From NCBI RefSeq assembly GCF_004010195.1, contig NC_057757.1:2503292-2555262 (forward strand): 51,971 nucleotides of DNA. The letters are read 5' to 3'. Every line of letters starts with the position of its first letter. Within the stretch, counting starts at the first letter, position 1. This document shows positions 591 to 51,210 of the stretch, in pieces. Source of the stretch: Chiloscyllium plagiosum. Taxonomy: Eukaryota. The notes beneath the pieces are model-generated. The model saw only the letters and a list, made by a program, of their open reading frames with translations. It searched no databases and was not told where the DNA came from. The position numbers and the translations under genes are program-made.

Positions 591-957
591 CAGAATCAGC
601 TTCCAATTTCCCACATTTGTATTGCCATGGAGACCGCATCAGTGATGTGGTTAAAAGCCGTCCTTTAGGGTGGGGGGAGATCTGCCATCCTTACCCTGGC
701 CTGGCCTGCACGTGACTCCAGGCCGACAGAGATGTTCCTGACTCAGCGCTGCCCTCAGAGACAGTCCCAGAAGGGATCAGGAGCCGTTCAGGAACTTGCA
801 GTCTTCCAGCGAGGTCCACTCTCTCCTCTGCTCCCTCCCAAACCCCCGTACCCCTTGAGAACTCCAAACACTAACAATGCCCCCCCCCCCCCACCGACTG
901 TACCGTAGCAACAAAACCGGGACACTAGATAAATCGAACCTTGCTGCATTTCTCCAG

Positions 958-1270
958 GATGGCCTCGGATCAGCGGGAGCAGTCTCGGAGTTTGACGATG
1001 ACCCCCCGCAGTGACGGAGGGACTCCGCAGAAATCCTGCCAGCCCAAGACGCACGTGATGTTCCTGAAGACCCACAAGACGGCCAGCAGTACCATCCTGA
1101 ACATCCTGTACCGCTTCGGGGAGGCGAGAAACTTAATGTTTGCCCTGCCCAACTCCTACCAGTTTGGCTACCCCTTCCTGTTCAGTACAAGGAAGATCAA
1201 ATACTACAGTCCAGCCAAGTTGCAGGAGTATCACATCATCTGCAACCACATGAGGTTCTTCAGGCCGCAG
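958..1270 (+). CDS. GAL3ST4: Galactose-3-O-sulfotransferase (GAL3ST4-like), penultimate coding exon
   Basis: Acceptor tttctccag|g at 957/958 and donor cag|gtaggt at 1270/1271. Encodes CQPKTHVMFLKTHKTASSTILNILYRFG (5'-PAPS-binding KTHKTASST) and YQFGYP...HIICNHMRF. Upstream transmembrane exon(s) lie outside the window. Confidence 0.9.
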
Positions 1271-1377
1271 GTAGGTGGCGATAATAGCGGCGTGGTGGTA
1301 TTATCGCTGGACCCCCCAGCTCCGAATCCCGACATGATGGGACCTGGATTCCGTTTTCAAAAGGAAGCGTGGAATTA

Positions 1378-1680
1378 AGATGGCGGCTCAGCCTTTAGCG
1401 CTGCTGCCTCACGGCGCTGGGGGCGTGGGTTCACTTCCACCCTCAGGCAAACGTCCGTGTGGAGCGTGCACATTCTTAGATTACCTACAGTGTGGAAACA
1501 GGCCATTCGGCCCAACAAGTCCACACTCACCCTCTGAAGCGCAACCCAACCCAGACCCATTCCCGCACATTTAGCCCTGCGCCTAACACTACGGGCAATT
1601 TAGCCTGGCCGATTCACCTAACCTGCACATTTTTGGTCCCCGTGGCTTTCCTCCAGTTTCATCCCACAGTCCAAAGGTGT
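1378..1680 (+). mobile_element. HE1/V-SINE interrupted by an inverted SINE 3' part (~1475-1632, minus)
   Basis: tRNA-like head atggcggctcagcctttagcgctgctgcctcacggcgc; the V-domain resumes at ccccgtggctttcctcc..tcccacagtccaaag; reverse-strand tail ttagattacctacagtgtggaaacaggcc lies in between. Confidence 0.75.
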
Positions 1681-2385
1681 GCAGGTTAGGGTGGATTGGC
1701 CGTGCTAAATTGTCCCATAGTGCCCAGGGATGTGCAGGTTAGGGTGGATTGGCCGTGCTAAATTGTCCCATAGTGCCCAGGGACGTGCAGGTTAGGGGGG
1801 TTGGCCGTGGTCAATTGTCCCCTAGTGTCCAGGAATGTGCAGGTTAGGGTGGATTGGCCGTGCTAAATTGTCCCATAGTGCCCAGGGATGTGCAGGTTAG
1901 GGTGGATTGGCCGTGCTAAATTGTCCCNNNNGGGATGTGCAGGTTAGGGTGGATTGGCCGTGCTAAATTGTCCCGTAGTGCCCAGGGGATGTGCAGGTTA
2001 GGGTGGATTGGCCATGCTAAATTGTCCCATAGTGTCCGGGGATGTGCAGGTTAGGGTGGATTGGCCGTGCTAAATTGTCCCATAGTGCCCAGGATGTGCA
2101 TGTTAGGGTGGATTGGCCGTGCTAAATTATCCCATAGTGCCCAGGGATGTGCATGTTAGGGTGGATTGACCATGCTAAATTGTCCCATAGTGCCCAGGGA
2201 TGTGCATGTTAGGGTGGATTGTCCGTGGGAAATTGTCCCATAGTGCCCAGGGATGTGCAGGTTAGGGTGGATTGGCCGTGGGAAATTGTCCCATAGTGTC
2301 CGCGGATGTGCAGGTTCGGGTGGATTGTCCGTGGGAAATTGTCCCATAGTGCCCAGGGATGTGCAGGTTAGGGGGGATTGTCCTC
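1676..2385 (+). repeat. 53-bp SINE-derived minisatellite (~13 copies) in the GAL3ST4 intron
   Basis: Unit gatgtgcaggttagggtggattggccgtgctaaattgtcccatagtgcccagg; gcagg recurs at 1681, 1734, 1787; 4-N gap at 1928-1931. Confidence 0.97.
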
Positions 2386-2484
2386 TCCCGGTAGTTCAGG
2401 CCCTGCGTTCCCAGCAAAATCCTTGTGAACATTCCGCGTAGGCTCACCAAACCCTTGACCCTTGTCCATTTGTGGCCTCTGTAG

Positions 2485-3306
2485 GTTGAGAAAGTGATGG
2501 CAAAGGGGACCTTGTACTTCTCGATCTTGCGGAGCCCGGTGACCCTGGCCGAATCGTCCTTCACCTACTACAAGGGGACCAGCTCGGCCTTCAAGAAGGT
2601 GGAGTCGCTGGAGCAGTTCCTCAGCGACCCATGGAGGTATTACTCTGCCCGGGAGCGGGGCAACCAGTACGCCCGCAACCTGATGTGGTTCGATTTCGGC
2701 TTCGACCCCAACGCCAACGACACGGCCGACTACGTGGAGCTGGTCCTCAAGGAGATCGGGGCTACCTTCCACCTCATCCTGCTCTCCGAGTACTTCGACG
2801 AGTCCATGATCCTGCTGAAGGATGCCCTGTGCTGGGAGTTCGACGACGTCGTCTCCTTCAAGCTGAACTTCCGCAGCAACGTTACGGTGAGGCGGCTGTC
2901 AGAGGACGCAACCCGACGGGTGAAGGCCTGGAACGCGTTGGATTGGAAGCTTTACCTCCACTTCAACCGCACCTTCTGGCAGAAGGTGGAGGACTACGGC
3001 CTACAGAGGATGAGGAGCGACGTCCTGATCCTGAGGGAGAAGCGCAGGAGGCTGATGGACCTGTGTCTCCAGGGAAGCAAGCCGGTGGACGCCAGCCAAA
3101 TCGAGGACAAGAACATCAAACCCTTCCAGTATGGCCGGGCCCAGATCATGGGCTATAACCTGAACCCGAATCTGGATAACAGCACCAGGGAGAAATGTTT
3201 ACGGATGGTCATGCCTGAGCTCCAGTACAAGGATCTTCTCGATGCCAAACTGTTCCCGTTGACTCCCACTGTCAAAAGCCTACAGACGCCACAGAAACAT
3301 TTCTGA
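2485..3306 (+). CDS. GAL3ST4: Galactose-3-O-sulfotransferase (GAL3ST4-like), last coding exon
   Basis: Acceptor ctctgtag|gtt, phase 0, joins RFFRPQ|VEKVM. Motifs YFSILRSP..LAESSFTYYKGTSSAF, YARNLMWFDFG, EYFDES, WNALDWKLY.HFNRTFW, PELQYKDLLDAK; stop TGA at 3304-3306. YYKxTSSAF and PELQYKDxLDAK match my recollection of GAL3ST4, and the TRAPPC14 neighbour supports that paralog. Confidence 0.9.
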   Translation, partial: VEKVMAKGTLYFSILRSPVTLAESSFTYYKGTSSAFKKVESLEQFLSDPWRYYSARERGNQYARNLMWFDFGFDPNANDTADYVELVLKEIGATFHLILLSEYFDESMILLKDALCWEFDDVVSFKLNFRSNVTVRRLSEDATRRVKAWNALDWKLYLHFNRTFWQKVEDYGLQRMRSDVLILREKRRRLMDLCLQGSKPVDASQIEDKNIKPFQYGRAQIMGYNLNPNLDNSTREKCLRMVMPELQYKDLLDAKLFPLTPTVKSLQTPQKHF

Positions 3307-4579: not shown

Positions 4580-4960
4580 CTTTTATTTATGGTGGGGGCA
4601 TCGCTGGCTGGGCCTAGTCTTTATTGCCCCATCCCTAATCGCCCCCCCGAGGGCAGTTAAGAGCCGATCCCATTGGCCGTGGGTCTGGAGTCACGTCTGG
4701 AGTCAGCAGGTCTGGCACCATCTGTGGAGAGAAATCAGACTCAACGTTTCAGTCTGGTGTAGGCCAGACCAGGTAACGATGGCAGTTTCCATCCCTGAAG
4801 GACATTAGAGAACCAGATGGGTTTTTCCCGACAATGAGTTCACGGTCATCATTAGATTCCAGATTCTTTATTGAATTCCGTGGCTGGATTTGAACCCAGG
4901 TCTTCGGAACATTACCTGATTCTCTCAGTTAACAGTCGGGTGATAAGGACCACTAGCGCC
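4580..4960 (-). mobile_element. Second tRNA-headed SINE family; further copies ~7370-7712(-), 18915-19745(+, with nested minus copy ~19020-19548), 35750-36090(+), 36900-37450(-)
   Basis: Recurrent core atttattgcccatccctaattgccc..gggcagttaagagtcaacc..gggtctggagtcacatgtaggccagaccaggtaa; B-box-like gggttcaaatcc in the head; A-rich tail gaatgaataaa. Confidence 0.8.
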
Positions 4961-5389
4961 CCCCCCCCCCCCCCCGTAATTATTATGATGTGGAGGTGCC
5001 AATGTTGGACTGGACAGATAAAGTCAGAAGTCGGGTGACACCAGGTTGTAGCTGAATGGGTTTATTTGGAATCAGAAGTTTTCGGAGCGATGTTCCAATT
5101 ATCATGGTGAGGAGACATCTCCCCTGTAGTATATCAGATACCTTAAAGCTTTCCACACCTTCCTGTCCAACTGTGCAAAACAAAACTGGACCCTATCTGT
5201 ACTCCCCCCCTCCCTCCCCCCAACTTTCAAAACTTGAGTGGCAAAGTCTCAACCAATCAGAGTTGACTTACTCAACCAATCAGCTCCCTTTTCTCATTTG
5301 GTATAAATTGTTGCTCACTTTGAAGTTTGGCATTCTTGCACGTGTCCTGATGCCTACGAGATTTATCAGTCATCCTTTTATAAGGACTA

Positions 5390-5579
5390 GGAGAAAGTGA
5401 GGGCTGCAGATGCTGGAGATCAGAGCTGAAAANNNNNNNNNNNNNNNNNNNNNNNNNNNNNNNNNNNNNNNNNNNNNNAAGCCTGATTCCTGAAGAAGGG
5501 CTTATGCCCGAAACGTCGATTCTCCTGCTCCTTGGATGCTGCCTGACCTGCTGCGCTTTTCCTGCAACACATTTTCAGC
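5390..5579. mobile_element. Short Penelope-derived fold-back insertion with a hammerhead motif (family A)
   Basis: TSD ttttat[a/c]aggacta at 5376-5389 and 5580-5593; motif ttc-CTGAAGA-A-GGGC-ttat-GCCC-GAAACGTC-ga at 5487-5520; internal N gap. Confidence 0.8.
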
Positions 5580-6409
5580 TTTTATCAGGACTATCCAAGT
5601 TCTTCACTCCCACAACTTTGGAAGTTAGAGGGAAACTTACAGAGCTGCCATAAGTGAGGCTTATGTAGAGATACATAAAAGAGGAGATTTCACTTGGAAT
5701 GGGTCTGCTTCATTAAAGCGTAGAGCTTATTTAAAAGGGGCAACTATTCTTGAGCTCTCAAAGTGTTGAACCCTCAGAGAATGTGAATTTTGATAAGAGT
5801 ACACATGTACAGGATGGTGAAGAGTTAGAACTGGGGGGGGTGGAGGAAACGTAATGTTTTTGGTTTGAATGCAAAACGAAAATGCATTTTTGTTTTGCGG
5901 GATGGTGCTCCCCAGCAGCAAATTCTGGTTGTGTTTTTGCGTATGTGAAAGGCACTATACAAATGCAAGTCGTCCTATTTATTTCCGTACAGTCACATTA
6001 ATACGGGTGTTTTGATTCGAGTTCCGGTTTTGTGTTTGGTACTGGATTGTGGGTTAAAATCCTAGAGTTCGTTTTCTCTCTCTTTCTCTCTCACATGTAC
6101 ACAGTACCCTTAACCACATGTTGATTCAAGATGGCGTCTTCACGTCAGCAGTTGGTGGGAGAGTGGGCTGAACCAGGGACATCCACTTCCACAAAAGACA
6201 GAGAAAGAAGCTTCATAGGAAGAAACACACGTTTTAGTTCTCTTTAGGAATCAAAGTTCAAGAAAGTTGAAAATAAAATAAAAACCACACAATGACTTTG
6301 CAAGATCTCAGTGGGCATGTCGACATCTTTAGAGAGAAGGAAGCAGAGTTAAGGGTACCCTTTTATCAGAACTGGGAGAATTCAAGATTGGACAGAGATT
6401 TTAAGCAAG

Positions 6410-6613
6410 TCAAAAGTGAAACAACTGCTGATGCTGTAGATCAGAAACGAAAAGCAGGAATTGCTGGAAAAGCTCAGCAGGTCTGGCAGCATCTGCGGAG
6501 AGAAAGCAGTGTTAAGGTCAAGTGAGGTTCTGAGGAAGGGACACCGGACTGAAATGTTGAGCCTGATTTCTCTCCACAGATGCTGCCAGACCTGCCGAGC
6601 TTTTTCCAGCAAC
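6410..6613. mobile_element. Fold-back Penelope-like tail element (family related to A)
   Basis: Inverted arms ttgctggaaaagctcagcaggtctggcagcatctgcggagagaaa / tttctctccacagatgctgccagacctgccgagctttttccagcaa; decayed motif gttCTGAGGAaggg...GAAATGTT. Confidence 0.7.
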
Positions 6614-7195: not shown

Positions 7196-7917
7196 GAGTC
7201 CTCCAGCTCCTGTGGCAATGTGCACTTTTTATTGGTGTGCAGTAGCTGTGGACAGTGATGATCGAGACTCCAAGCCCTTTGAATCATGTTTCCAATATCC
7301 TGCTGTTCCCTCCTGGAAGTATTTACAAATCAGTTTGCAAACTGTTTAATAGAGACACCTTTTTTTGAAAATCATTCATTTGCAAGATGTGGGGGGATCA
7401 CTGACTAGGCCAGCGTTTATTGCCCATCCCTAATTGCCCAGAGGACAGGTGAGAGTCAACCCCATTGGGTGCAGGTCTGGAGTCACATGTAGGCCAGACC
7501 AGGTAAAGATGGCAGTTTCCTTCCCTTCAAGGCCAGGTAAATTTTCCCTCCAACAATAGTCACCATTAGACTCTTAATTCCTTTTTTTTTACCCTTGAAG
7601 CTGAATTCAAATTGCACCATCTGCCGTGGTGGGATTTGAACCGAGCTCTCCAGAACATGAGCTGGGTCTGTGGATTAAAGTCCAGCAACAATACCACTAG
7701 GCTATTGCCTCCTTCTGGGATACCAGGTACAGGACTTGAGGCAGAGATGGTACGTACTGAACCTCAGGACCAGTTTCTCCCGAGAGCTATAATCTCTCTG
7801 TGACCATCCTTGTAAAAAGTTACATCGCATCTTCCCTGGTGTGTGTGAGTCCTAGTTTAATACAGTCAAGACCAAACCGCTTTGGTGAGAAGGACAGGCA
7901 AAGAACATAATTACTAA

Positions 7918-8779
7918 ATTAAAAACCACCCAACACCAGGTTATAGTCCAACAGGCCTATTTGGAAGCACTAGCTTTCGAAGCACTGCTCCTTCATCAGG
8001 AGGTTGTGAAGAATAAGGTCATAGACACAGAATTTCTAGCAAAAGTTTACAGTGAGATGCAACTGAAATGATGTATTGAACAAACCGGGATTGTTGTTAA
8101 TGGGTTGCAGATTTTGGTTCATTAATACGTAAATCCCAGAATTACTTTCCAGTCACATTCTTGAGATAACTTAAGATTTTATATAAAAAAAACTCTCATG
8201 CACACACTCCCATGCTCTCTCCCTCCCCCTGCCCCTCACATGCACACACACAAACACATAAGTCTATGGGGTGAATTTGCATTTGCAAATACATTTTTTT
8301 TTATCAAAAAGTACACAACCTGCAGGCGGTCAATCCATGTAACATTTTATAATTTCCTACTTTGGAAATAGAACCAGTCGGACTCAAGACTGGGATACAG
8401 ACAGATCCTAACCTCACACCTTTAATACATTGTCTGAGCCGAGATGTTCCTTTTTTGTAATAAAACCTTATGTTATCTCGAGAATGTGACTTTAAAAAAG
8501 TTCTGGGATTTGCATATTAATGAACCAAAATCTGCAACCCATTCTAAAAGATGAAAGACTTAACAGCAATCCAGGTTTGTTCAATATATTGTTTTAATTG
8601 CATGACACTATGATCTTTTGCTGTACATTCTGGGTCTTATGATCCTGCCCCACTAGTTACCTGATGAAGGAGCAATTCTCCGAAAGCTAGTGCTTCCAAA
8701 TAAAGCTGTTGGACTATAACCTGGTGTTGTGTGATTTCTAACTTTGTCCACCCCAGACCAACACCAGCTCCTTCACATT
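7918..8779. mobile_element. Penelope-like terminal-repeat element with ~270-bp inverted arms (family B), one hammerhead motif per arm
   Basis: 7921-8180 is the reverse complement of ~8462-8738; motifs CTGATGA-A-GGAGC-agt-GCTTC-GAAAGCTA-gtg (7968-8002, minus) and CTGATGA-A-GGAG-caatt-CTCC-GAAAGCTA-gtg (8658-8692, plus). Confidence 0.8.
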
Positions 8780-9799: not shown

Positions 9800-10815
9800 G
9801 TTATGCAGAAAGCATAAGGGACTGTCAGAGAATACAGGAGGATATAGATAGACTGGAGAGTTGGGCGGAAAAGTGGCAGATGGTTTTCAATCCAGACAAA
9901 TGTGAGGTGATGTGTTTCAGGCAAGACTATTTCTCGAGCGAATTATACAATGAACGGGAGAGCCTTGGGAAAAGTTGATGGGCAGAGAGACCTGGGAGTG
10001 CAGGTCCACTGTACCCTGAAGGTTGCTGCACAGGTAGATAGAGTTGTCAAGAAGGCATATGGTATGCTTGCCTTCATTGGACGGGGTATTGAGTACAAGA
10101 GCTGGCAAGTCATGTTAACATTGTACAAGACATTCGTTTGGCTGCATTTAGAATACTGTGTACAGTTCTGTTCACCTCATTACCAAAAGGATGTGGACGC
10201 ATTGGAGGGGGTGCAGGGAAGGTTTACGAGGATGTTGCCTGGAGGGGATGGTGCTAGCAATGAAGAAAGTTGAGTAGGTTTGGTTTATTTTCATTAGAAA
10301 AAAGGAGATTGAGGGGGAACCTGATTGAGGTTTATAAAATCATGAAGGGTACAGACAGGGTGGATAGAGACAAGTTTTTTCCCAGGGTGAAGGATTCAAT
10401 AACGACAGGTCACGCTTTCAAGGTGAGAAGTGGAAAGTTTAAGGGGGGGATACACGCGGCAAGTACTTCACACAGAGTGGTGGGCGTTTGCAACGCATTG
10501 CCAGCAGAGATGGTAGAGGCAGGCACGGTAGATTCATTTAAGATGTAGGTTTGCTCCCTGAGCTGTAGGTTTGATATCCAGACGTTTCATTACCTGGCTA
10601 GGTAACATCATCAGTGGCGACCTCCAAGTGAAGCTACAAACCTTCACAAACCTTGCAAGATTCATTTAAGATTCGTCTGGATAAATGCATGAGTAGGTGG
10701 GGAGCAGAGGGATACGGATGCTTAGGAATTGACCGACAGGTTTCGACAGTACATTTGGATCGGCTCAGGCTTGGTGGGCTGAAGGGCCTGTTCCTGGGCT
10801 GGAAATGTTCTTTGT
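9800..10815 (+). mobile_element. CR1-clade LINE fragment (divergent subfamily) interrupted at 10545-10657
   Basis: QRDLGVQVH..LKVAAQVDRVVKKAYGMLAFIGRGIEYKS..LEYCVQF.SPHYQKD. Confidence 0.9.
10578..10617 (-). ncRNA. Minimal type I hammerhead ribozyme motif (family C), intact core
   Basis: Minus strand reads CCA-CTGATGA-T-GTTACCT-agcc-AGGTAAT-GAAACGTC-TGG: stem I CCA/TGG, 7-bp stem II, ACGT palindromic stem III, GUC cleavage triplet. Confidence 0.75.
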
Positions 10816-11259: not shown

Positions 11260-12260
11260 TGAACAAAGAGACCTTGGAGTGCAGGTTCATAGTCCCTTGA
11301 AAGTAGAGCCGCAGTGGACAGGATCGTGAGGGAGGCGTTTCGTATGCTTGCCTTTCTTGGTCAGCCCATTGGGTATAAGAGTTGGAAAGAGTAAATGAGG
11401 AGTGATGAAGGGCCTATGTCCGAAATGTTACCTCTCCTGCTCCTCGGATGCTGCCTGACCAGCTGTGCTTTTCCAGCACCACACGTTTTGACCTTATAGG
11501 AGCTGGGAGGTCATGTTGTGACTGTACAGGACATTAGTTAGGCCACATTTGGAATTCAGTGTTCAATTCTGGTCTCCCTGCGGTAGGAGGGATGTTCAGA
11601 AACTTGAGAGAGTTCAGAAACAATTTACGAGGATATTGCCGGGGTTGGGGGGTTTGAGCTATAAGGAGAGGTTGAATAGGCTGGGGCTGTTTTCCCTGGA
11701 GCATTGGAAAATAAGGGGTAACCTTACAGTCAAGGTCTTTTTTCTCAGGTTAGGGGAGTCCAAAGGGGATTCACTAGAATGATACCAGGAATGAGATCTT
11801 TTAGATACAGGGGAAGACGAGAACCATAGAGTCGTACAGCTACCATAGCAACAAACATTTTTTACGCAGTTATACAGCACGGAAACAAACCCTTCAGTCC
11901 AACTCCTCCATACCGTCCAGATATCCCAACCCAATCTAGTCCCACCTGCCAGCACCCGGCCCATATCCCTCCAAACCCTTCCTATTCATACACCCATCCA
12001 AATGCCTCTTAAATGTTGTAATTGTACCAGCCTCCACCACATCCTCTGGCAGCTCATTCCATACACGTACCACATCCTCTGCGTGATAAACTTGCCCCTT
12101 AGGTCTCTTTTATATCTTTCCCCTCTCACCCTAAACCTATGCCCTCTAATTCTGGACTCCCCCACCCCAGGGAAAAGACCTTGCCTATTTACCCTATCCA
12201 TGCCCCTCTATAAGGTCAGCCCTCAGCCTCCGAGGGTCCAGGGAAAACAGCCCCAGCCCT
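11260..12260. mobile_element. Two CR1/HER1 LINE fragments (+ ~11260-11860, - ~11870-12260); family A tail inserted at ~11386-11494
   Basis: RT C-terminal motifs on both strands; insert flanked by tataagagttgg / tataggagctgg. Confidence 0.85.
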
Positions 12261-12872
12261 GTGTTACAATAATGGACAGTGTTGATTTGACCGCTTGTAA
12301 CTTGCCTTTTGTTTTCCTGTGATATAATCACCTTCCTGTTAGTCCCTGCAAATATTCAATTCCGTGTTTGAATAAACTCACACATTCTTTGCCCCTGCCA
12401 CCCGTTTAATCAGACCACACTCACTAACGTGAGTCCAGTGACGGGATCAGGGGGTTGATGGGTGATCTGGGCTACCTAAGTCCGGATTCTCATCCTGATG
12501 AAGGCCTTATGCCCGGAACGTCGAATCCTCCTGCTCCTCGGGCACTGCCTGACCTGCTGCGATTTTCCAGCGCTACGCTCTCTCGACCTCAGAGTGTCAG
12601 CGGTGTACTGATCCCACAAAACCAGAACTCCCTCCGCCCAGGTCCCTGCGAGGCTGCAGTGCAAACCACCAAGCAGCCGAAATGTGGTCAGACCAATGAT
12701 CTGTGGAGATGGAGCGCCCCGTCCTCACCCTGCTTTTCGAAAGCTCGCGTTTCGCCACTTTGCTTTTTATGAAAGACCAACATATTATGAAAGTACCTGT
12801 TCTTGCTAACCTAAAGAAATACAAAGAGGATGTTCGCTTTTCTGAGAAAAGGTGAAATTTTTCCCCGTATGA

Positions 12873-14985: not shown

Positions 14986-15329
14986 GAAAATATTGAGGCA
15001 GCAGGACATATCACCCAAAGGGTTGGGAAAGTAGTCAAGGAAACTCAATGTAGAAATTTCCAGGTCAATCCTCAAGTGGAGAGGTACACTTACTGAAAAT
15101 AATCCAGTGCAAAAAAACCCCAATGTCACAGCACACACAAACCCCTCCTCCTAACTGGAAATAGAGCCAAGATTGACAAATTCCAACTAAAACGACAAGA
15201 GGTCAAATTTAATTTTGACAGAACGGACAAACTATTGCCGGAGTTGAGATGATGAGGAGTGAATCAGCTTTGAGAAACCTCAGTAAGACTGGGCCCACTG
15301 TCGACTATGTGTTTGCACAAAGCCATTGT

Positions 15330-16300
15330 CAATGAACGATTATTCCAATGGTGAAAGATTGCAGCGTGCCGCAGTGCAGAGGGAGCTGGGAGTCCTTGTG
15401 CATGAATCACAGGAAGTTGGTTTGCAGGTGCAGCAGGTAATTAAGAAGGCAAATGGAATAGTGTCCTTCATTGCTCAAGGGATGGAGTTTAAATTAGAGT
15501 GGTGCTGGAAAAGCACAGCAGGTCAGGCAGCATCCGAGGAGCAGGAAAATCGACATTTCGGGCAAAGGCCCTTCATCCTTCCTGATGATGAGTGTTTGCC
15601 CGAAACATCGATTTTCCTGCTCCTCGGATGCTGCCTGACCTGCTGTGCTTTTCCAGCACCACTCTAATCCAGACTCTGGTTTCCAGCATCTGCAGTGCTT
15701 ACTTTTGCCTGAATGGAGTTTAAAAACAGGGAGGTCATGCTGCAGCTGTATAGGGTGCTGGGGAGGCCACACCTGGAGTACTGTGTACAGTTTTGGTCTC
15801 CTTACTTGGGAAAGGATGTCCTGGCACTGGAGGGGGCGCAGAGGAGGGTCATTAGGTCGATTCTGGTGTTGAGAGGGTTGGCTCATGAGGAGGGATTGAA
15901 CAGACTGGGACTATACTCATGGGAATTTCGAAGCATGAGTCGGGGGGATCTTAGAGAAACATATGAAATGATGAAGGGATTAGAAGCAGGGAGGCTGGTT
16001 TCACTGGTGGGTCAACTAGGGGGCATCGGGGGGGGGGGAGATGATTTGGGACTGAGTTCAGGAGGAAATTCTTCACCCAAAGGGCTTTGAATCTGTGGAA
16101 TTCCCTGCCCAGGGAAGTAGTTGAGGCTACCCCATTGAATGTTTTTAGATAGATTTTGGAACAGTAAAGGAATGAAGGGTTAGGGTGAGCGGGCGGGAGA
16201 GAGGAGCTGAGTCCATGAAAAGATCAGCCATCTTATTGACTGGTGGAACAGGGCTCAAGGGGCCAGGCGGCCTACTCCTGCTCCTATTTCTGACGGTCTT
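15330..16300 (+). mobile_element. CR1-clade LINE fragment interrupted by a fold-back family A element (15494-15712)
   Basis: QVQQVIKKANGIVSFIAQGMEFK|MEFKNREVMLQLYRVLGRPHLEYCVQFWSP; 12-bp TSD atggagtttaaa at 15482-15493 and 15713-15724. Confidence 0.9.
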
Positions 16301-19272: not shown

Positions 19273-19448
19273 AGAAAGTGCGGACCGGAGTTGCTGGAGA
19301 TCAGAGTCGAGAGTGCGGTGCTGGAAAAGCGCAGCATCCGTGCAGCAGGAGCAGCCTCATTCCTGATGAAGGACTTATGCCTGAAGCATCGATTCTCCTG
19401 CCCCTCAGCTGCTGCCTGGCCTGCCGTGCTTTTCCAGCATCACACCTG
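19273..19448. mobile_element. Fold-back family A insertion inside a SINE
   Basis: Perfect 14-bp TSD caccatctgccagg at 19259-19272 and 19449-19462; decayed motif CTGATGAaggacttatgcctGAAGCATC. Confidence 0.85.
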
Positions 19449-20366
19449 CACCATCTGCCAGGGTCAAGGATTTGAACCCAGGACCTCACGAACATTACCT
19501 GGGTCTCTGGATTAACAGTTCAGCAATAATACCGTTAGGCCATCACCACGAATCCATTGGAATAATCCATCTGTTCACTAATCCCCTTTAGGGATGGAAA
19601 TCTGCCATCCTTACCTGTGGTCTGGCCCATATGTAACTCTAGGCCCACAGCGATGTGATGGTCTCTTAACTGCCCTCTGAGCCATTAGGGATGGGCAATA
19701 AATGCCAGGCATAGGCAGCGATGCCATCATCCAGTGAGTGAATAAAGGAAAAGGAAATGATGTCTGATTGAATGGATACTGAGCTTCCTCCCCGCTTAAG
19801 GAAGGCGCTTGATTGACAGGAAGATAAAAGAAGGATTTCAAAGGTTCCCCTGAAGAAATGCAATGTCGTCATCAATGTGTGGGAGACCCTTGTTCAGAAG
19901 AAACTGTCTCAGAGGGAGCTCCTGTACATGGAGACGCAATTCTTCAAGAGAGAGAGTCCTTGGCAAGGGACAGTATGGAAAAGAAACTTGAAAACAGGAA
20001 TGCCAGGGATCTCAGGGCTAAGGATGGACTCCACCTCCCGGAAACACCGAAGGTGTGGTTGGAGGTATGGGTCTGGGATCAGCCACACCCAGAGGCCGTG
20101 GCCAGTGAGGTGGAACTTCCCAGGTCAATAACCATTCTCATTGGCCAGCGATTGCTAAAGGTGACAAAGGCAAAATCGCTGTAGTCCCCATTACAGCGAG
20201 CGATGACTGGTGGCGGTTTAACCGGAGGGTCACCAAGCTCCAGATGAGGGGAGGGGTTGAGAAGGAGAGTCCTGCGTGGTAACCCCAACCTATGCTAGGA
20301 TTGAACCCAGTGCGTTGGCATCACCAACAGAGCTAAGTGACTCCAGGCAGGTGGGTGGGGTGCATT

Positions 20367-21150
20367 AGGCAAAAGTGAGGACTGCAGATGCTGGAGGTCA
20401 GAGTCAAGATTAGAGTGGTGAGCAGGTCAGGCAGCATCTGAGGAGCAGGAAAATCAATGTTTCGGGCAGGAGCCCTTCATCAGGAATGACGCTGGGAACT
20501 TCCAGGGTGGAGAGATAAATGGGAGAGGGGTGGGGCTGGGGAGAAGGTAGCTAAGAGTGCAATAGGTAGATGGAAGTGGGGATAAAGGTGATAGGCCGGA
20601 GAGGAGGGTGGAGCAGATAGGTGGGAAGGAAGATTGTCAGGTAGGACAGTTCATGAGGATGGTGTTGAGTTAGAAGGTTGGAACTGGGGTAAGGGGGGGG
20701 GGGGGGGAGGGGAAATGAAGAAACTGGTGAAGTCCAAATTCATGCCCCGGCAGAAGTAAAGGTGTTCTTCCTCCAGGCATTAAGTGGTGAGGCAGCAGCG
20801 GTGGAGGAGGCCCAGGACCTGCATGTCCTTGGTAGAGTGGATGGGGGCGTTGAAATGTTCAGCCACGGGGCAGTGGGGTTGATTGGTGCGGGTGTCCCAG
20901 AGATGTTCCCTAAAGCGCTCTGCGAAAAGGCATCCAGTCTCCCCAGTGTAAAGGAGACCACACCGGGAGCAACGGATACAATAAATGATATTTGTGGAAG
21001 TGCAGGTGAAACTTTAATGGATCCTTGCGTTCCTTTGGAACACATTGTGAGCGTCGACTTGGGGTGGGATCCCCAGCAGCAGGTGGCGATGGTGAGGCAG
21101 GAGGAGGAGTGGCTGGATCAGTCAAATGGAGAAAGAAAGAGCGTCTTTGG
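20367..21150 (-). mobile_element. 5'-truncated Penelope-like element: GIY-YIG endonuclease remnant plus family A tail
   Basis: Minus strand reads FTCTSTNIIYCIRCSRCGLLYTGETGCLFAERFREHLWDTRTNQPHCPVAEHFN; downstream is CTGATGA-A-GGGC-tcct-GCCC-GAAACATT (20453-20487) and the tail ccagcatctgcagtcctcacttttgcct. Confidence 0.85.
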
Positions 21151-22590: not shown

Positions 22591-22701
22591 GGACGGATTC
22601 GTTGTGCAGGGGGTGTGGTTGGGAGCGGGGCCGGCCGTTGCCATGGTGAAGGGCGGGGGTTAGGCCGGAGCCCGAGCCCGAGCCCGAGCCGGGGCAGGGC
22701 A

Positions 22702-39018: not shown

Positions 39019-39321
39019 ATTTTGAGGTGCCGGTGTTGGACTGGGGTGTATAAAATTAAAAATCACCCAACACCAGGTTGTAGTCCACCAGGTTTATTCT
39101 GAAATCAACATGGTCATTCTAAAAGATGAGAGACTTAACAAACAATCAATATATTGATCTTACAATATATAATTTCCGTTACATCACACTGTAAACTCTT
39201 GCTAGAAATCCTGTGCCTTATGATTTTATTCTCCACAACCGCCTGATGAAGGAGCGTCTCTCCGAAAGCTAGTGCTTCCAAATAAACCTGTTGGACTATA
39301 AGCTGGTGTTGGGTGATTTTT
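39019..39321. mobile_element. Family B Penelope-like insertion with an intact + strand hammerhead motif (39240-39274)
   Basis: TSD accaaga[t/g]tttg at 39007-39018 and 39322-39333; cgc-CTGATGA-A-GGAG-cgtct-CTCC-GAAAGCTA-gtg; inverted terminal segment. Confidence 0.82.
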
Positions 39322-40672
39322 ACCAAGAGTTTGGTCACCTTTCCAGAACGTCTCCTCGTGTGGCTCAGTGTCCAGCCTCGTTTGGTAATCGCTCCCACAA
39401 AGAGCCACGAGAAGATCTTCCTTTGTTGAAAGGCACTACATAAATGTAGAGTGTCGGCTGAATGGCTGGTTTGCCACACCAATAGCGTGGGTCCGATTCC
39501 CGCGCCTGCTCAGGTTACTGTGACGGTCCTGACTTCTCACCCTGTCCCATCGCCATGAACCCTCAGGTTAAACCACCACCTTAAAGAGAGAGCAGCCTCT
39601 GGTCCTCTGCAGGAGGGAGGGGGTACAATGATGGCTTTCCCTTTCTTAGATTAGATTCCCGACAGTGTGGAAACGGACCCCTTGGCCCAACAAGACTGGG
39701 GTGACTGACAATACCAGCCTTTCCCACGGGCAATAAGTGGGCAAATTCCAAATTCTGGTTTCATTAAGGACAAGGTCTACTTTTCAATCTGTTTTGCTGA
39801 TTCCCTTAAGAATATACATTTCAGGCACCAATCATCCAAACCCTTTGCATCAATATTGTTGGATGTTAGCGGACAGCACATTGGCAGCTGCAATTCAGAT
39901 CCTCAGTTGCACCTTTACAAATCACAGCTAAGCTGGAACCACAAACCTATTATGTTGGGATTACTGCTTTTAATCTGCTGCAAAACGTTACTTCAAGTTT
40001 CTGATTTACTTTTAGAGCATTGGCAGCCATTTTACTGCTTGGGGTTACGGAATTATCGGCGGGTTAGGGTGCGGAAGGGTTGGAGAGTTACGACGTGGAA
40101 AGATTGAAGAGTTGGGGTGGGGGGCAGGTGGCTCCGAGAGTCAGGGCGGGGGAAGGTCGGGGAGCCGAGAGGGTGGGAACGTCAGTGAGCCGGGGCGCAT
40201 CCAGGCAAGTGGGGAGTATCCGCTCGCATTCCTGACCTGTGGGACAGGCTTCGGGGAGTTACTTGCTGCAGGATTCCCAGCCTCTGACCTGCTCTTGTGG
40301 CTGCTGTGTTTATGTGGTTAGTCCAGTTGAGTTTCTGGTCAACAGTGACCCTCAGGATGTGGTGGGGGTGGGGGTTTCAGTGATGGTAACGCCATTGAAT
40401 GTCAAGAGGCGGTGGTTATTGTCTTATCAGCGATGGTCATAGCCTGGCATTTGTGTTCCTCAAAGAGCATTCAAAAGGAAGAGCTGGTGATGGGGGGGGG
40501 GGTGGAGGTTGGAGTGCCTTATGGAGCAATAGCTTGAGCCTGGGGCCTAGTTGGTGGTAGGCCCAGGCTCCCTGTGGTAGAGCACTTAAAATTAGAGCAA
40601 GGGATCACAGAGGACCAGTGGAGAAGGGTACCTCATGCAGGAGGGGCTTGAAATTGAAGTGGACTGCATGGG

Positions 40673-40799
40673 GAATGAAGGGCTTTTGCCCGAAACCTCG
40701 ATTTTCCTGCTCCTCGGATGCTGCCTGACCTGCTGTGCTTTTCCAGCACCAATCTAATCTAGACTCTGCTTTCCAGCATTTGCAGTCCTTGTTTTTACC
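40673..40799 (+). mobile_element. Family A tail insertion truncated within the hammerhead core
   Basis: TSD ctgcatggg at 40664-40672 and 40800-40808; atgaagggcttttgcccgaaac. Confidence 0.8.
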
Positions 40800-47809: not shown

Positions 47810-49322
47810 GCAGGTTTTGAGCAGATTTGTAGCTCACATTGAAGTTCTGGATGTAGGTTTGCTCGCTGAGCTGGAAGGTTCGTTTTCAGACATTTCGTCA
47901 CCATATTGGGTAACATCTTCAGTGAGCCTCCGGGTGAAGCACTGGTGGCAAGGCCCGCTTTCTATTTATGTTAGGTTTCCTTGGGCAGGTAATGTCACTT
48001 CCTTTGGTGACGCCATTTCCTATGGTGACATCATTTCCGGTTCTTTTTGTCAGGAGGTGGTAAATGGGTTCCAAGTCAATGTGTTGTTGACAGAGTTCCA
48101 GCTGGAATGCCATGTTTCTAGGAATTCTTATGTGTGCCTCTGTTTGGCTTGTCCTAGGATGGAGGTGTTGTCCCAGTCGAAGTGGTGTCCTTTCTCATGC
48201 GTATGTAAGGATACTAGTGAGAGAGAGTCATGTCGTTTTGTGACTAGTTGATGTTCATGTATTCTGGTGGCTAGTTTTCTGCCTATTTGTCCAATATAGT
48301 GTTTGTTACAGTTCTTGCATGGTATTTTGTAAATGACATTAGTTTTGTTTGTCTGTATAGAGTCTTTCAAGTTCATGAGCTGCTGTTTTAGTGTGTTGGT
48401 GGGTTTGTGGGCTACCATGATGCTAAGGGGTCTGAGTAGTCTGGTAGTCATTTCAGTCTGACCACATACTGAACTACAGAAGCAATCATCCCAACACCCA
48501 CAAACAAAGTTGTATTAGAACATTATTTCAATGAGTCACCACACACTGCAGCACACAGGAACTACAAAGAGCAGAGGAAAATCACCTATACAGCGTATTC
48601 AAAAAGAACAGGTAACTAATGAACACAGTCCGCTGATTTCTCTCAGCAACAAACCCAAACAAGCAGACAAAACACGTCCAGAAACCCTAGCCACTCTCCC
48701 CTACATCGAAGATATCTCGGAAATGACTGCCAGACTCCTCAGACCCCTTGGCATCATGGTAACCCACAAACCCATCAACACACTAAAACAGCTGCTAATG
48801 AACTTGAAAGACTCTATACAGACAACAAACAAAGCTAACTTCATTTACAAAATACTGTGCAGGAACTGTAACAAACACTACATTGGAGACAGACAGGCAG
48901 AAAACTAGCCACCAGGATACATGAACATCAACTAGCCACAAAACGACATGACCCACTATCACTGGTATCCTCACATACAGATGAGGAAGGACACCACTTC
49001 GACTGGGACAACACATCCATCCTAGGACAAGCCAAACAGAGACACTCATGAAAATTCCTAGAAGCATGGCATTCCAACTGGAACTCTATCGACAAACACA
49101 TCGAGTTAGTCCCCATCTACCACCCCAAGAAAAAGAACAGGAAGTGACTTCACCGCAGGAAATAACATCACCACAGGAAATGACATCACCAACCCAAACA
49201 TATAAATGGAAAGCAGGAATTTTCAGCATTGCTTCGCCTGAGGCCCACTGAAGATGGTACCTAGTAGGGTAATGAAACGTCTGGAAATGAGCCTATCAGC
49301 TCAGTGAGCAAACCTACATCCA
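47810..49322. mobile_element. Inverted (head-to-head) pair of Penelope-like GIY-YIG element 3' halves (family C)
   Basis: Minus 47810-48455 and plus 48456-49322 both encode NVIYKIPCKNCNKHYIGQ..RKLATRIHEHQL; the plus copy carries CCA-CTGAAGA-T-GGTACC-tagtag-GGTAAT-GAAACGTC-TGG at 49245-49284. Confidence 0.9.
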
Positions 49323-49329
49323 TCGTGTC

Positions 49330-49575
49330 ATGCTTCCCAAGCTTTTTGTCTTGCATTCATCAGGACAAATGCACGAATGCCAATTTTTAAATGATTGCAA
49401 CAGTGTAACTTCTTGTCATCAGGGAAAGCGTAAGAAGCAGATTTTATCAAATTGCAGAGCAGTTTTGAGGGCACCCTCCTCCTAATTTATGAGTATTCGA
49501 CGTGCAAATTGTTTGAAGTTTGGCATTCTTGCACATGTCCTGATGAACGCAAGACTGAAAGCTTCAGTCATGTTT
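49330..49575. mobile_element. Short inverted-repeat element with decayed hammerhead-like motifs (family D)
   Basis: aagctttttgtcttgcattcatcaggacaaatgcacgaatgccaa is the reverse complement of ttggcattcttgcacatgtcCTGATGAacgcaagactGAAAGCTTC; related fragment at ~5320-5352. Confidence 0.65.
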
Positions 49576-49970: not shown

Positions 49971-50525
49971 AAACTGCTGAAAATGTGTTGCTGGAAAAGC
50001 TCAGCAGGTCAGGCAGCATCCAAGGAACAGGAGAATCGACGTTTTGGGCATAAGCCCTTCAGGAATGAGGAAAGTGTGTCCAGCAGGCTAAGATAAAAGG
50101 TAGGGAGGAGGGACTTGGGGGAGGGGCGTTGGAAATGCGATAGGTGGAANNNNNNNNNNNNNNNNNNNNNNNNNNNNNNNNNNNNNNNNNNNNNNNNNNN
50201 NNNNNNNNNNNNNNNNNNNNNNNNNNNNNNNNNNNNNNNNNNNNNNNNNNNNNNNNNNNNNNNNNNNNNNNNNNNNNNNNNNNNNNNNNNNNNNNNNNNN
50301 NNNNNNNNNNNNNNNNNNNNNNNNNNNNNNNNNNNNNNNNNNNNNNNNNNNNNNNNNNNNCAGCCTTGATCTCCAGCATCTGCAGTCCTCACTTTCTCCT
50401 TGAAGATTTTAACCTACTGCGAATCCTCTTACAAGGATGCCTTCCTTGAAGAAGCTCTCTTCCTCCCTCTACAAGGATTTCAGTGAGTCCCTCTCTCACT
50501 GCACACCCCAGGTCATCTCCTCTGC
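49971..50525. mobile_element. Family A Penelope-like insertion with inverted arm, internal gap and extended 3' tail
   Basis: 14-bp TSD ccagaatagagtgg at 49957-49970 and 50526-50539. Confidence 0.85.
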
Positions 50526-51034: not shown

Positions 51035-51210
51035 GGGCGAAAGTGAGGGCTGCAGATGCTAGAGATTAGAGTCAAGATTAGAGTGGTGCTGGAAAAGCAC
51101 AGCAGGACAGGCAGCATCTGTGGAGCAGGAAAATCGGCGTTTCAGGCAGGAGCCCTTCGTATGAAATCCTGATGAAGGGCCCCTGCCTGAAACGTTGATT
51201 TTCCTGCTCG
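51035..51210. mobile_element. Fold-back family A insertion with an intact + strand hammerhead motif (51166-51199)
   Basis: TSD tcagattgtt at 51025-51034 and 51211-51220; ATC-CTGATGA-A-GGGC-ccct-GCCT-GAAACGTT-GAT. Confidence 0.85.

Follow-up and report, generated by a model that had tools for sequence, protein, structure and literature searches.

The insert and its target site

We have analyzed a stretch of 51,971 nucleotides of the Chiloscyllium plagiosum genome, termed here the window. At 929-3306 it contains exons of a galactose-3-O-sulfotransferase gene (Pfam E = 6e-93). A GC-rich, first-exon-like segment with a plausible coding start lies at 22650-23240 and gives way to a long tandem repeat that contains an N gap, while the minus strand at 28752-28825 has a tRNA-like Rfam match of 39.2 bits, which exceeds the gathering score, possibly the head of a SINE or a tRNA pseudogene. 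The feature of main concern is an insert of 219 bp (15494-15712), which splits a LINE fragment on the plus strand (15287-15910) that we take to be CR1-like by resemblance.

The insert is bordered by target-site duplications (TSDs) of 12 bp, at 15482-15493 and 15713-15724 on the plus strand, which were identified in a TSD search and match at 12 of 12 positions. The target site was checked by joining the LINE flanks. Removal of the insert and one TSD by script restores an open LINE frame, which aligns across the site to another LINE copy of the window (178 nt, 68%). The initial annotation had described a 219-bp insert in a LINE with a perfect 12-bp TSD, and both the duplication and the restored frame bear this out.

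Signed positions below are counted along the sense strand of the element, the initial C of the hammerhead core (CTGATGA) being 0. We took them by eye from the alignments, and errors of 1-3 nt are possible at junctions with microhomology. Inside the TSDs lie two inverted arms, each derived from the end module of a Penelope-like element (PLE) family that we call family A. The left arm (15494-15577, minus strand) runs from +2 to a proximal 3′ end at about +87 and is tail-less. The right arm (15579-15667, plus strand) starts at -3 and contains a decayed minimal hammerhead motif, with its core at 15582-15588 and GAAA at 15602-15605. A single junction base (15578) separates the two 5′ ends. The right arm alone continues into a tail of 45 nt (15668-15712, plus strand), in the sense in which the term is defined in PMC11167929, reaching a distal 3′ end at about +130. 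The inverted arms 15485-15577 and 15584-15676 are 90% complementary; inside the TSD the arms are 84 bp long and agree at 78 of 84 positions, close to the inverted repeat of about 85 bp with a one-sided tail of about 45 nt that had been noted before. To judge from its sequence, the insert is two 3′-end stubs of a Neptune-type PLE, placed head to head.

The hammerhead motif

In the window we counted 22 instances of the core CTGATGA, where 9.8 would be expected; none of 100 shuffles reached 22. The motif fits the minimal-hammerhead pattern described in PMC4209133, by our own descriptor scan and alignment, with cleavage as a prediction. The predicted cut, numbered from the standard core, falls after +27, and the cut product would start at +28. 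Helix II has a predicted stability of -7.9 kcal/mol, with its 3′ foot at about +20. A hairpin over the 5′ edge of the core is weaker, at a predicted -3.3 to -3.9 kcal/mol, and has its 3′ foot at +4 to +9.

Two head-to-head ribozyme motifs had been proposed for these inserts, and this holds in part. Motif-bearing arms do face each other; at the focal insert, however, the left motif is clipped, lacking the first two bases of the core, and the right one is decayed, with four changes in helix II and one in the helix III palindrome. Either strand of the insert carries only one motif in sense, folded into a long hairpin (predicted -169 kcal/mol). In the pairs at 19273 and 29995 one arm is without the core. 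An Rfam search of the window gave no hammerhead match; seven miRNA matches were returned, all far under the gathering score. Palindromic stubs mimic both MITEs and microRNA hairpins, and may be misannotated.

Further copies in the window

Family A is represented by 16 arms at 10 loci of the window, and 14 of the arms were aligned. Head-to-head pairs are found at 27040-27256 (starts about -3 and -3, tail on the left, TSD 12/12), 19273-19448 (starts +32, on the tailed arm from which the core is absent, and -11; TSD 14/14) and 51035-51210 (starts +3, on the tailed arm, and -2; TSD 10/10). In the last of these the short arm stops early, at about +43, a point at which TSD and element are similar in sequence. 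The center of the pair at 5390-5578 is hidden by 46 N (TSD of 15 bp with one mismatch), and that of the pair at 49976-50400, one arm of which extends to at least -87, is likewise hidden by N. Three solo stubs lie on the plus strand: one from +3 with a tail (40673-40799, TSD 9/9), one from +1 and tail-less (11402-11494), for which a clean TSD was not found, and one from about -7, also tail-less (12488-12587). Between the likely TSD and the stub at 11402, 15 extra bases (11387-11401) hold a 7-nt inverted copy of -8 to -2, a possible template-switch scar.

A second PLE family, B, provides the head-to-head pair at 29995-30202, which starts at about -9 (tailed arm) and +11 and has a TSD of about 11 bp with two mismatches, as read by eye. 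The initial annotation had listed this locus together with 27040, 19273, 51035 and 5390 as being of the same build. That is correct for the latter four, which all belong to family A; the locus at 29995 has the same build, but belongs to another PLE family. A third family, C, forms a pair at 10545-10657 (TSD 15 bp), in which an arm from -20 is joined through short microhomology to an inverted piece consisting of the tail only, of about 30 nt. None of 2000 shuffles reached the score of this alignment.

Related structures of other sizes and families are present as well. A large family-C head-to-head pair at 47848-49322 has arms of about 600 bp with GIY-YIG remnants, the same build on a larger scale, and family C appears to be like Poseidon by its ATG at helix II. 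In the family-B pairs at 7912-8765 and 39019-39322 the arms are longer (-128 to about -210), and the middle of one pair is a microsatellite-rich segment of 259 bp. A sister family of A, with another helix II and another tail, is seen at 6408-6612 and 4703-4758, head to head and with a one-sided tail; a clean TSD was not found there. A fourth hammerhead-bearing family (D) occurs at 49336-49566 and 5290-5375; a head-to-head pair of this family, with an imperfect 9-bp TSD, adjoins the family-C element. Its arms end about 25-33 nt after the start of the core, near the predicted cut, and its 3′ ends may be set by the ribozyme.

Several regularities are evident. The 12 TSDs collected from four families, several of them imperfect, measure 9, 9, 10, 10, 10, 11, 12, 12, 12, 14, 15 and 15 bp. 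The tail is on one side only in all six pairs listed. Family-A 3′ ends prefer two sites, one at about +87 to +92 and the other some 40 nt further on, at about +130: seven of eight short ends lie at the first, with one at +43, and eight tail ends are no more than a few bases from +130. At several insertions (the end at 15494, the end at 51210) the TSD is similar to the continuation of the element, which would fit target-template annealing.

The centers of the pairs are not alike. Three subfamilies occur, as judged by eye, and the four readable family-A centers in the window (the 15k, 27k, 19k and 51k pairs) are all different, which indicates that each pair was likely built anew. Both arms belong to the same subfamily in 4/4 pairs, again by eye. 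Beyond the subfamily markers only one private variant is common to both arms of a pair, a CpG in the 51k pair, so that one template RNA is not distinguishable from two. We are confident that these PLE stubs are built anew at each insertion.

Identity of the element

The stubs can be linked to a longer copy on the minus strand (20365-21030), which comprises a GIY-YIG remnant (about 20753-21022), a pyrimidine-rich UTR, a hammerhead core at 20483 and a tail. Stubs, solo copies and this long copy have one end module in common, and the GIY-YIG remnant upstream of that module ties the stubs to an element encoding a reverse transcriptase (RT) and a GIY-YIG endonuclease. The remnant is weak when compared with Pfam (E = 5e-4; 20.7 bits, under the cut-off of 22.6) and its frame is broken. 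No RT sequence is left in the long copy, and a convincing TSD for it was not found. Nowhere does the window contain a full-length copy of the tandem pLTR-ORF-pLTR form.

The two best database relatives of its reading frame are proteins of Chiloscyllium punctatum, 80-83% identical. One of these, P0001, to which the remnant is 78-83% identical, has RT-like motifs, a Cys-linker and a GIY-YIG domain near the C-terminus, in that order, the RVT_1 match having E = 0.008 and both Pfam scores lying under the cut-off. The CX2-5CxxC linker between RT and endonuclease is found in P0001; the copy in the window is truncated downstream of the linker position. This linker and the order RT-linker-GIY-YIG correspond to the reported layout of Neptune-type PLEs (PMC8557442), and family A would thus be a Neptune-type PLE by the layout and linker of its relatives rather than by a tree.

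A Penelope target-primed origin rather than a DNA transposon had been suggested earlier. The GIY-YIG remnant with the same end module, the TSDs of 9-15 bp and the one-sided tail all agree with this. Pattern scans with a 20-mer gave no match in viral contigs, 17 in metagenomes and 9 in prokaryote genomes; since no match extended beyond 34 nt against the window, all were taken as chance.

A sharp 5′ boundary at the edge of the core

A start that is readable or bounded is available for 13 of the 16 family-A arms; the other three are hidden by N. The starts are -11, -7, -3, -3, -3, -2, +1, +2, +3, +3, +32, beyond -87 and about -547. Ten of the 13 thus fall between -11 and +3. The probability of finding ten in any interval of 15 nt is at most 0.003 under four exponential null models, in which the interval was picked after the data were seen and the longest start was entered as -530. 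Breakpoints had been expected to cluster at the 5′ edge of the ribozyme, and they do.

The same boundary is seen in sequencing data. Reads and contigs of four runs were aligned to the long copy at 80% likeness; one of the runs, X22, yielded no alignments. For the raw reads of an RNA library (X21; 2915 aligned) the depth is 1371 at +41, 1232 at +25, 889 at +13 and 553 at -4, and falls to 79 at -7 and 57 at -15. Past the drop it is 36-69 at the four upstream points listed and 104-114 in the ORF. The flat coverage upstream identifies this as a step and not a decay. Between -4 and -7 the depth of DNA contigs drops 9-fold in one set (X1, 0.87M to 0.095M) and 7-fold in a set from another species (X9, 1.43M to 0.21M). 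Among the loose ends listed (18 of 2059), those at -4 comprise 534, 471 and 190 records with agreements of only 0.31, 0.31 and 0.41, indicating mixed flanks; loose ends arising from a deletion in the reference itself have agreements of 0.62-0.79.

The reference is an old copy that differs from the majority at -7 and upstream. Because of the mismatch at -7, ends between -4 and about -11 are not separated, and some long copies may be clipped artificially at -6. The bound on the share of long copies is correspondingly wide, at about 9% from RNA reads and about 30% from DNA contig depth (2.26M in the ORF bin against 7.4M), depth being no copy number. Of the X21 reads, 97% continue into unlike sequence, and most stem from copies that sit within other sequence. 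X21 showed no accumulation of molecule starts or ends; it is a poly(A) single-cell library, ill-suited to the mapping of starts and hence a weak test. The step itself is real; the base at which it falls, and its height, are approximate.

At -4, the loose sequence opens with a G (sense strand) in the X1 and X9 data, though not in those of X21. A G derived from the cap has been described for L1 (PMC9341517), and we considered the letter as possible evidence of a cap; it was rejected as such, as a subfamily variant (the arm at 5480 has G) or the partner arm could give the same letter.

At the other end of the element, the family-A tail end (20366-20380; also at 5390, 19273 and 50400) is a pyrimidine run followed, in some copies and in loose ends of reads, by CTAG. 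This resembles a splice acceptor; a convincing donor upstream was not seen. Contigs of two species join the tail end (20371/20372) directly to a copy from about +37 or +45 (20438 or 20446), forming short head-to-tail duplications without the core.

Promoter-like motifs at and upstream of the boundary

The initiator consensus is YYANWYY, and a TATA box is typically spaced about 30 nt from the start of transcription. The sequence TCATTCC (-6 to 0; 20483-20489, minus strand) matches this consensus with its A at -4 (20487), which is the position of the pile of loose ends listed at the 5′ boundary. The match must be read against the commonness of the consensus, which occurs at 0.96% per base, with five more instances in the 300 nt upstream. 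A TATA-like TTTAT (20515-20519, minus strand), which is a weak TATA box, lies 32 nt upstream of the A at 20487, and 31 nt upstream in the copy at about 50062. The spacing of 31-32 nt between TTTAT and TCATTCC is thus kept in two subfamilies that differ in the sequence between. Two family-A arms start upstream of -4, at -7 and -11.

The other families can be compared in the same manner. In family C, a TATAAA or CATAAA box is located at -47, -48 and -53 in three of three long copies. Its one short arm begins exactly 30 nt behind the box, at the motif lying there, and ends in a 3-nt microhomology; every one of the four copies has an ATG at +6. The box of family B, at -39/-40, is weaker, and of this family's short arms the one reaching furthest upstream begins at about -9. 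Many arms stop earlier than this: other family-B short arms start at about +8, +11, +35 and +45, and the partner arm in family C is the tail only. The upstream limit of the short arms nevertheless follows the box rather than the ribozyme in families A, B and C (in B and C by one arm each).

Transcription start sites inside the pLTR have been reported for the PLE of D. virilis, described as TATA-less (PMC2377424), and for a Chlamydomonas PLE (PMC8557442), and TATA and Inr-like motifs were noted in a rotifer pLTR (PMC3846280). From the position of these motifs, it is likely that the RNA that is copied starts at the boundary just before the ribozyme motif.

A proposed mechanism for the formation of the stubs

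The reading that we favor, to which as a whole chain we assign a probability of about 0.6, is that both nicked target strands prime reverse transcription, and that both cDNAs run off the 5′ end of the RNA before the core, in one event. The endonuclease would stagger its nicks by 9-15 nt. One 3′-OH would prime at the distal internal site, giving the tailed arm, and the other at the proximal site, giving the tail-less arm. In the Poseidon PLE of the anole, RT is reported to start at two internal sites that delimit the tail, and the element cuts and extends both target strands, shorter RNA 5′ ends giving shorter products (PMC11167929). Two priming sites per event are what two such internal start sites would allow, and we infer twin priming at the present loci. 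The main transcript would start at the initiator-like A at -4, with a spread of about -11 to -4, set by the TATA-like box about 31 nt upstream. With this start the cDNAs would measure only 90-135 nt each, and would resemble a retroviral strong-stop product. The two cDNA ends would lose a few bases and then be joined by repair, and in this way the mirror, the one-sided tail and the TSD could arise in one event. Priming by a single target end would yield solo stubs, and read-through templates or a template jump would yield long copies. The position of the ribozyme at the turning point would then merely reflect its location directly behind the start site.

Unlikely, in our estimation, is an alternative in which PLEs undergo an LTR-like strand transfer. 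Here the RNA would extend from -4 in an upstream repeat to the hammerhead cut at +27 in a downstream repeat, giving a terminal redundancy of about 31 nt. RT would prime near the 5′ end and run off the cap, and the cDNA would jump to the RNA's 3′ end, rebuilding a promoter-bearing pseudo-LTR; on the same slim odds, stubs and mirror pairs would be failed jumps. The step, the flat coverage beyond it, and a strand-switch joint of +28 to -6 all fit such a scheme. This joint is the only one of its kind among the 15 of 323 joints listed, is seen in 5 and 6 contigs from two species and in one read, and is uncertain in position by a few bases since the reference has mismatches at +25 and +27. Against it, ribozyme mutants of the anole element still insert in vitro, and read ends are reported as absent at the cut (PMC11167929). 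If true, strand transfer would give the PLE ribozyme a job, and would supply a mechanism for pseudo-LTR regeneration of the kind said to be missing (PMC2377424).

About equally doubtful is the proposal of the initial annotation that the structure of the ribozyme stalls reverse transcription, that is, that RT halts or falls off a longer, read-through template at a ribozyme-linked structure, or a bound protein, at the 5′ edge of the core. Breakpoints do hug the core, and the 3′ foot of the weak hairpin at its 5′ edge lies close to the starts of four arms (+1 to +3). However, RT would meet the stronger helix II first and should leave ends at about +20, yet 10 of 13 arms pass it and six end 5′ of the core. 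Moreover, the boundary coincides with the initiator-like motif, and the furthest-upstream short arms lie at differing offsets from the core in the three families and track the TATA-like box, again with one arm each for B and C. Stalling at the ribozyme is thus poorly supported as a cause.

We think it improbable that a single cDNA folds back on the TCAT...ATGA palindrome at the 5′ edge of the core and self-primes the mirror arm. The quasi-palindrome is present, the shared subfamily of the two arms in 4/4 pairs is as expected from such a process, and the first bases of the solo copy at 40673 are similar to the joint that fold-back would produce. Self-priming at palindromic junctions, with the antisense template preferred, has been proposed for rotifer PLEs (PMC3846280). 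Yet the predicted joint is found in none of the four readable family-A centers, all of which differ, and fold-back leaves unexplained both the solo stubs with the same 5′ boundary and the occurrence of the tail on either the earlier- or the later-starting arm.

Splicing could in principle create a sharp boundary, if a pyrimidine tract and AG at -10/-9 ended an intron and a spliced or mis-spliced RNA were the template. The long copy does have a long pyrimidine tract and CAG just upstream, and in D. virilis the 3′ end of an intron maps to the 5′ end of helix I (PMC4209133). A common upstream exon would be expected, whereas the loose ends at -4 are mixed, as seen above. The copy at about 50062 is without AG at this position, the arms at 19352 and 5480 retain it, and canonical intron ends occur in none of the 15 joints listed (of 323). 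This explanation is accordingly given little weight.

A short ribozyme-cut or circular RNA as template, in the manner of retrozymes, had also been suggested in the initial annotation; we regard it as very improbable for the stubs in general, and as accounting for a minor class at most. One arm in the window starts at +32, near the predicted cut, and together with the joint of +28 to -6 this makes a minor cut-derived class possible; retrozymes are, furthermore, reported to derive from the pLTRs of PLEs (10.64898/2026.07.22.740005). Such a template should give tandem units from +28, whereas most of the arms start some 30 nt upstream of that position, extend to +88 or +130 and lie inverted. The arm at +32 is the only one of 13 near +28, and the poly(A) library shows no pile of molecule ends, though this is a weak test. 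For the anole element, insertion by ribozyme mutants and RNA-seq data in which no reads end at the cut both argue against a cut template (PMC11167929). The label of retrozyme was rejected for these loci: none of the 10 family-A loci is tandem, and the boundaries (-11 to +3; about +88 or +130) are off the predicted cut.

Finally, an independent MITE, a derivative of a DDE transposon, or a fixed non-autonomous palindromic family copied as a unit, although suggested by the small size of the elements, their long inverted arms and their very high copy number, is largely refuted by TSDs that vary from 9 to 15 bp and differ in sequence, asymmetric termini, four differing centers across three subfamilies, and the presence of the same ends on solo stubs and on the GIY-YIG-bearing copy.

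Comparison with known systems

In L1 twin priming two target ends prime on the element RNA, and adjacent, non-overlapping parts become inverted; at the present loci both arms copy the same stretch. Retroviral minus-strand strong-stop DNA is a short cDNA that runs off the 5′ end of the RNA; it is tRNA-primed, and is not integrated as such.

The architecture described here, an inverted truncated copy with a one-sided tail, a variable TSD and a minimal hammerhead, is already published for PLEs. Insertions of EN+ PLEs likewise have an inverted 5′-truncated copy by the 5′ end, head to head, and a hammerhead in the pLTR (PMC8557442, PMC3846280). Their tail of 30-40 bp on one end and, in rotifers, TSDs of 8-10 bp compare with about 45 nt and 9-15 bp here (PMC8557442, PMC3846280). 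Truncation is described as variable in those accounts, whereas here both arms are bare, ORF-less stubs of 90-135 nt with a sharp 5′ step.

A close biochemical parallel in mechanism is provided by the Poseidon element PAc of the anole, where both strands are cut and extended in vitro and two internal RT start sites define the tail (PMC11167929). The distal RT start of PAc is 111-118 nt behind an ORF start at helix II, and family C likewise has an ATG at helix II (PMC11167929). Family A differs in being Neptune-type by the linker of its relatives. The available text of PMC11167929 maps no genomic 5′ ends or transcription start sites, and leaves inverted pairs unexplained.

Minimal hammerheads of metazoan PLEs have the same core boxes, a bulged base before helix II, a palindromic minimal helix III and a short helix I (PMC4209133). 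They are described there as mostly single and from truncated PLEs, with some opposite-strand pairs 100-700 bp apart; the distance in our pairs is 0-25 bp, and at the focal insert the motifs are decayed or clipped. Non-LTR retrozymes are likewise non-coding, hammerhead-bearing and PLE-related (PMC7229834, 10.64898/2026.07.22.740005). As reported, however, they consist of direct repeats of 150-450 bp in tandem and have canonical type I ribozymes and circular RNAs, while the copies in the window are inverted or solo and have minimal motifs.

A 5′ step linked to the transcription start site in PLEs was found in no report within the open-access literature searched. What is added here is the comparison of the TATA-plus-30 position across families A, B and C. 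How inverted and pseudo-LTR structures arise in PLEs, and what function the ribozyme has, are open points of the field. A sharp 5′ boundary that tracks a promoter-like motif would turn the very many stubs in genomes into a record of the reaction, and into a clue to the replication of PLEs.
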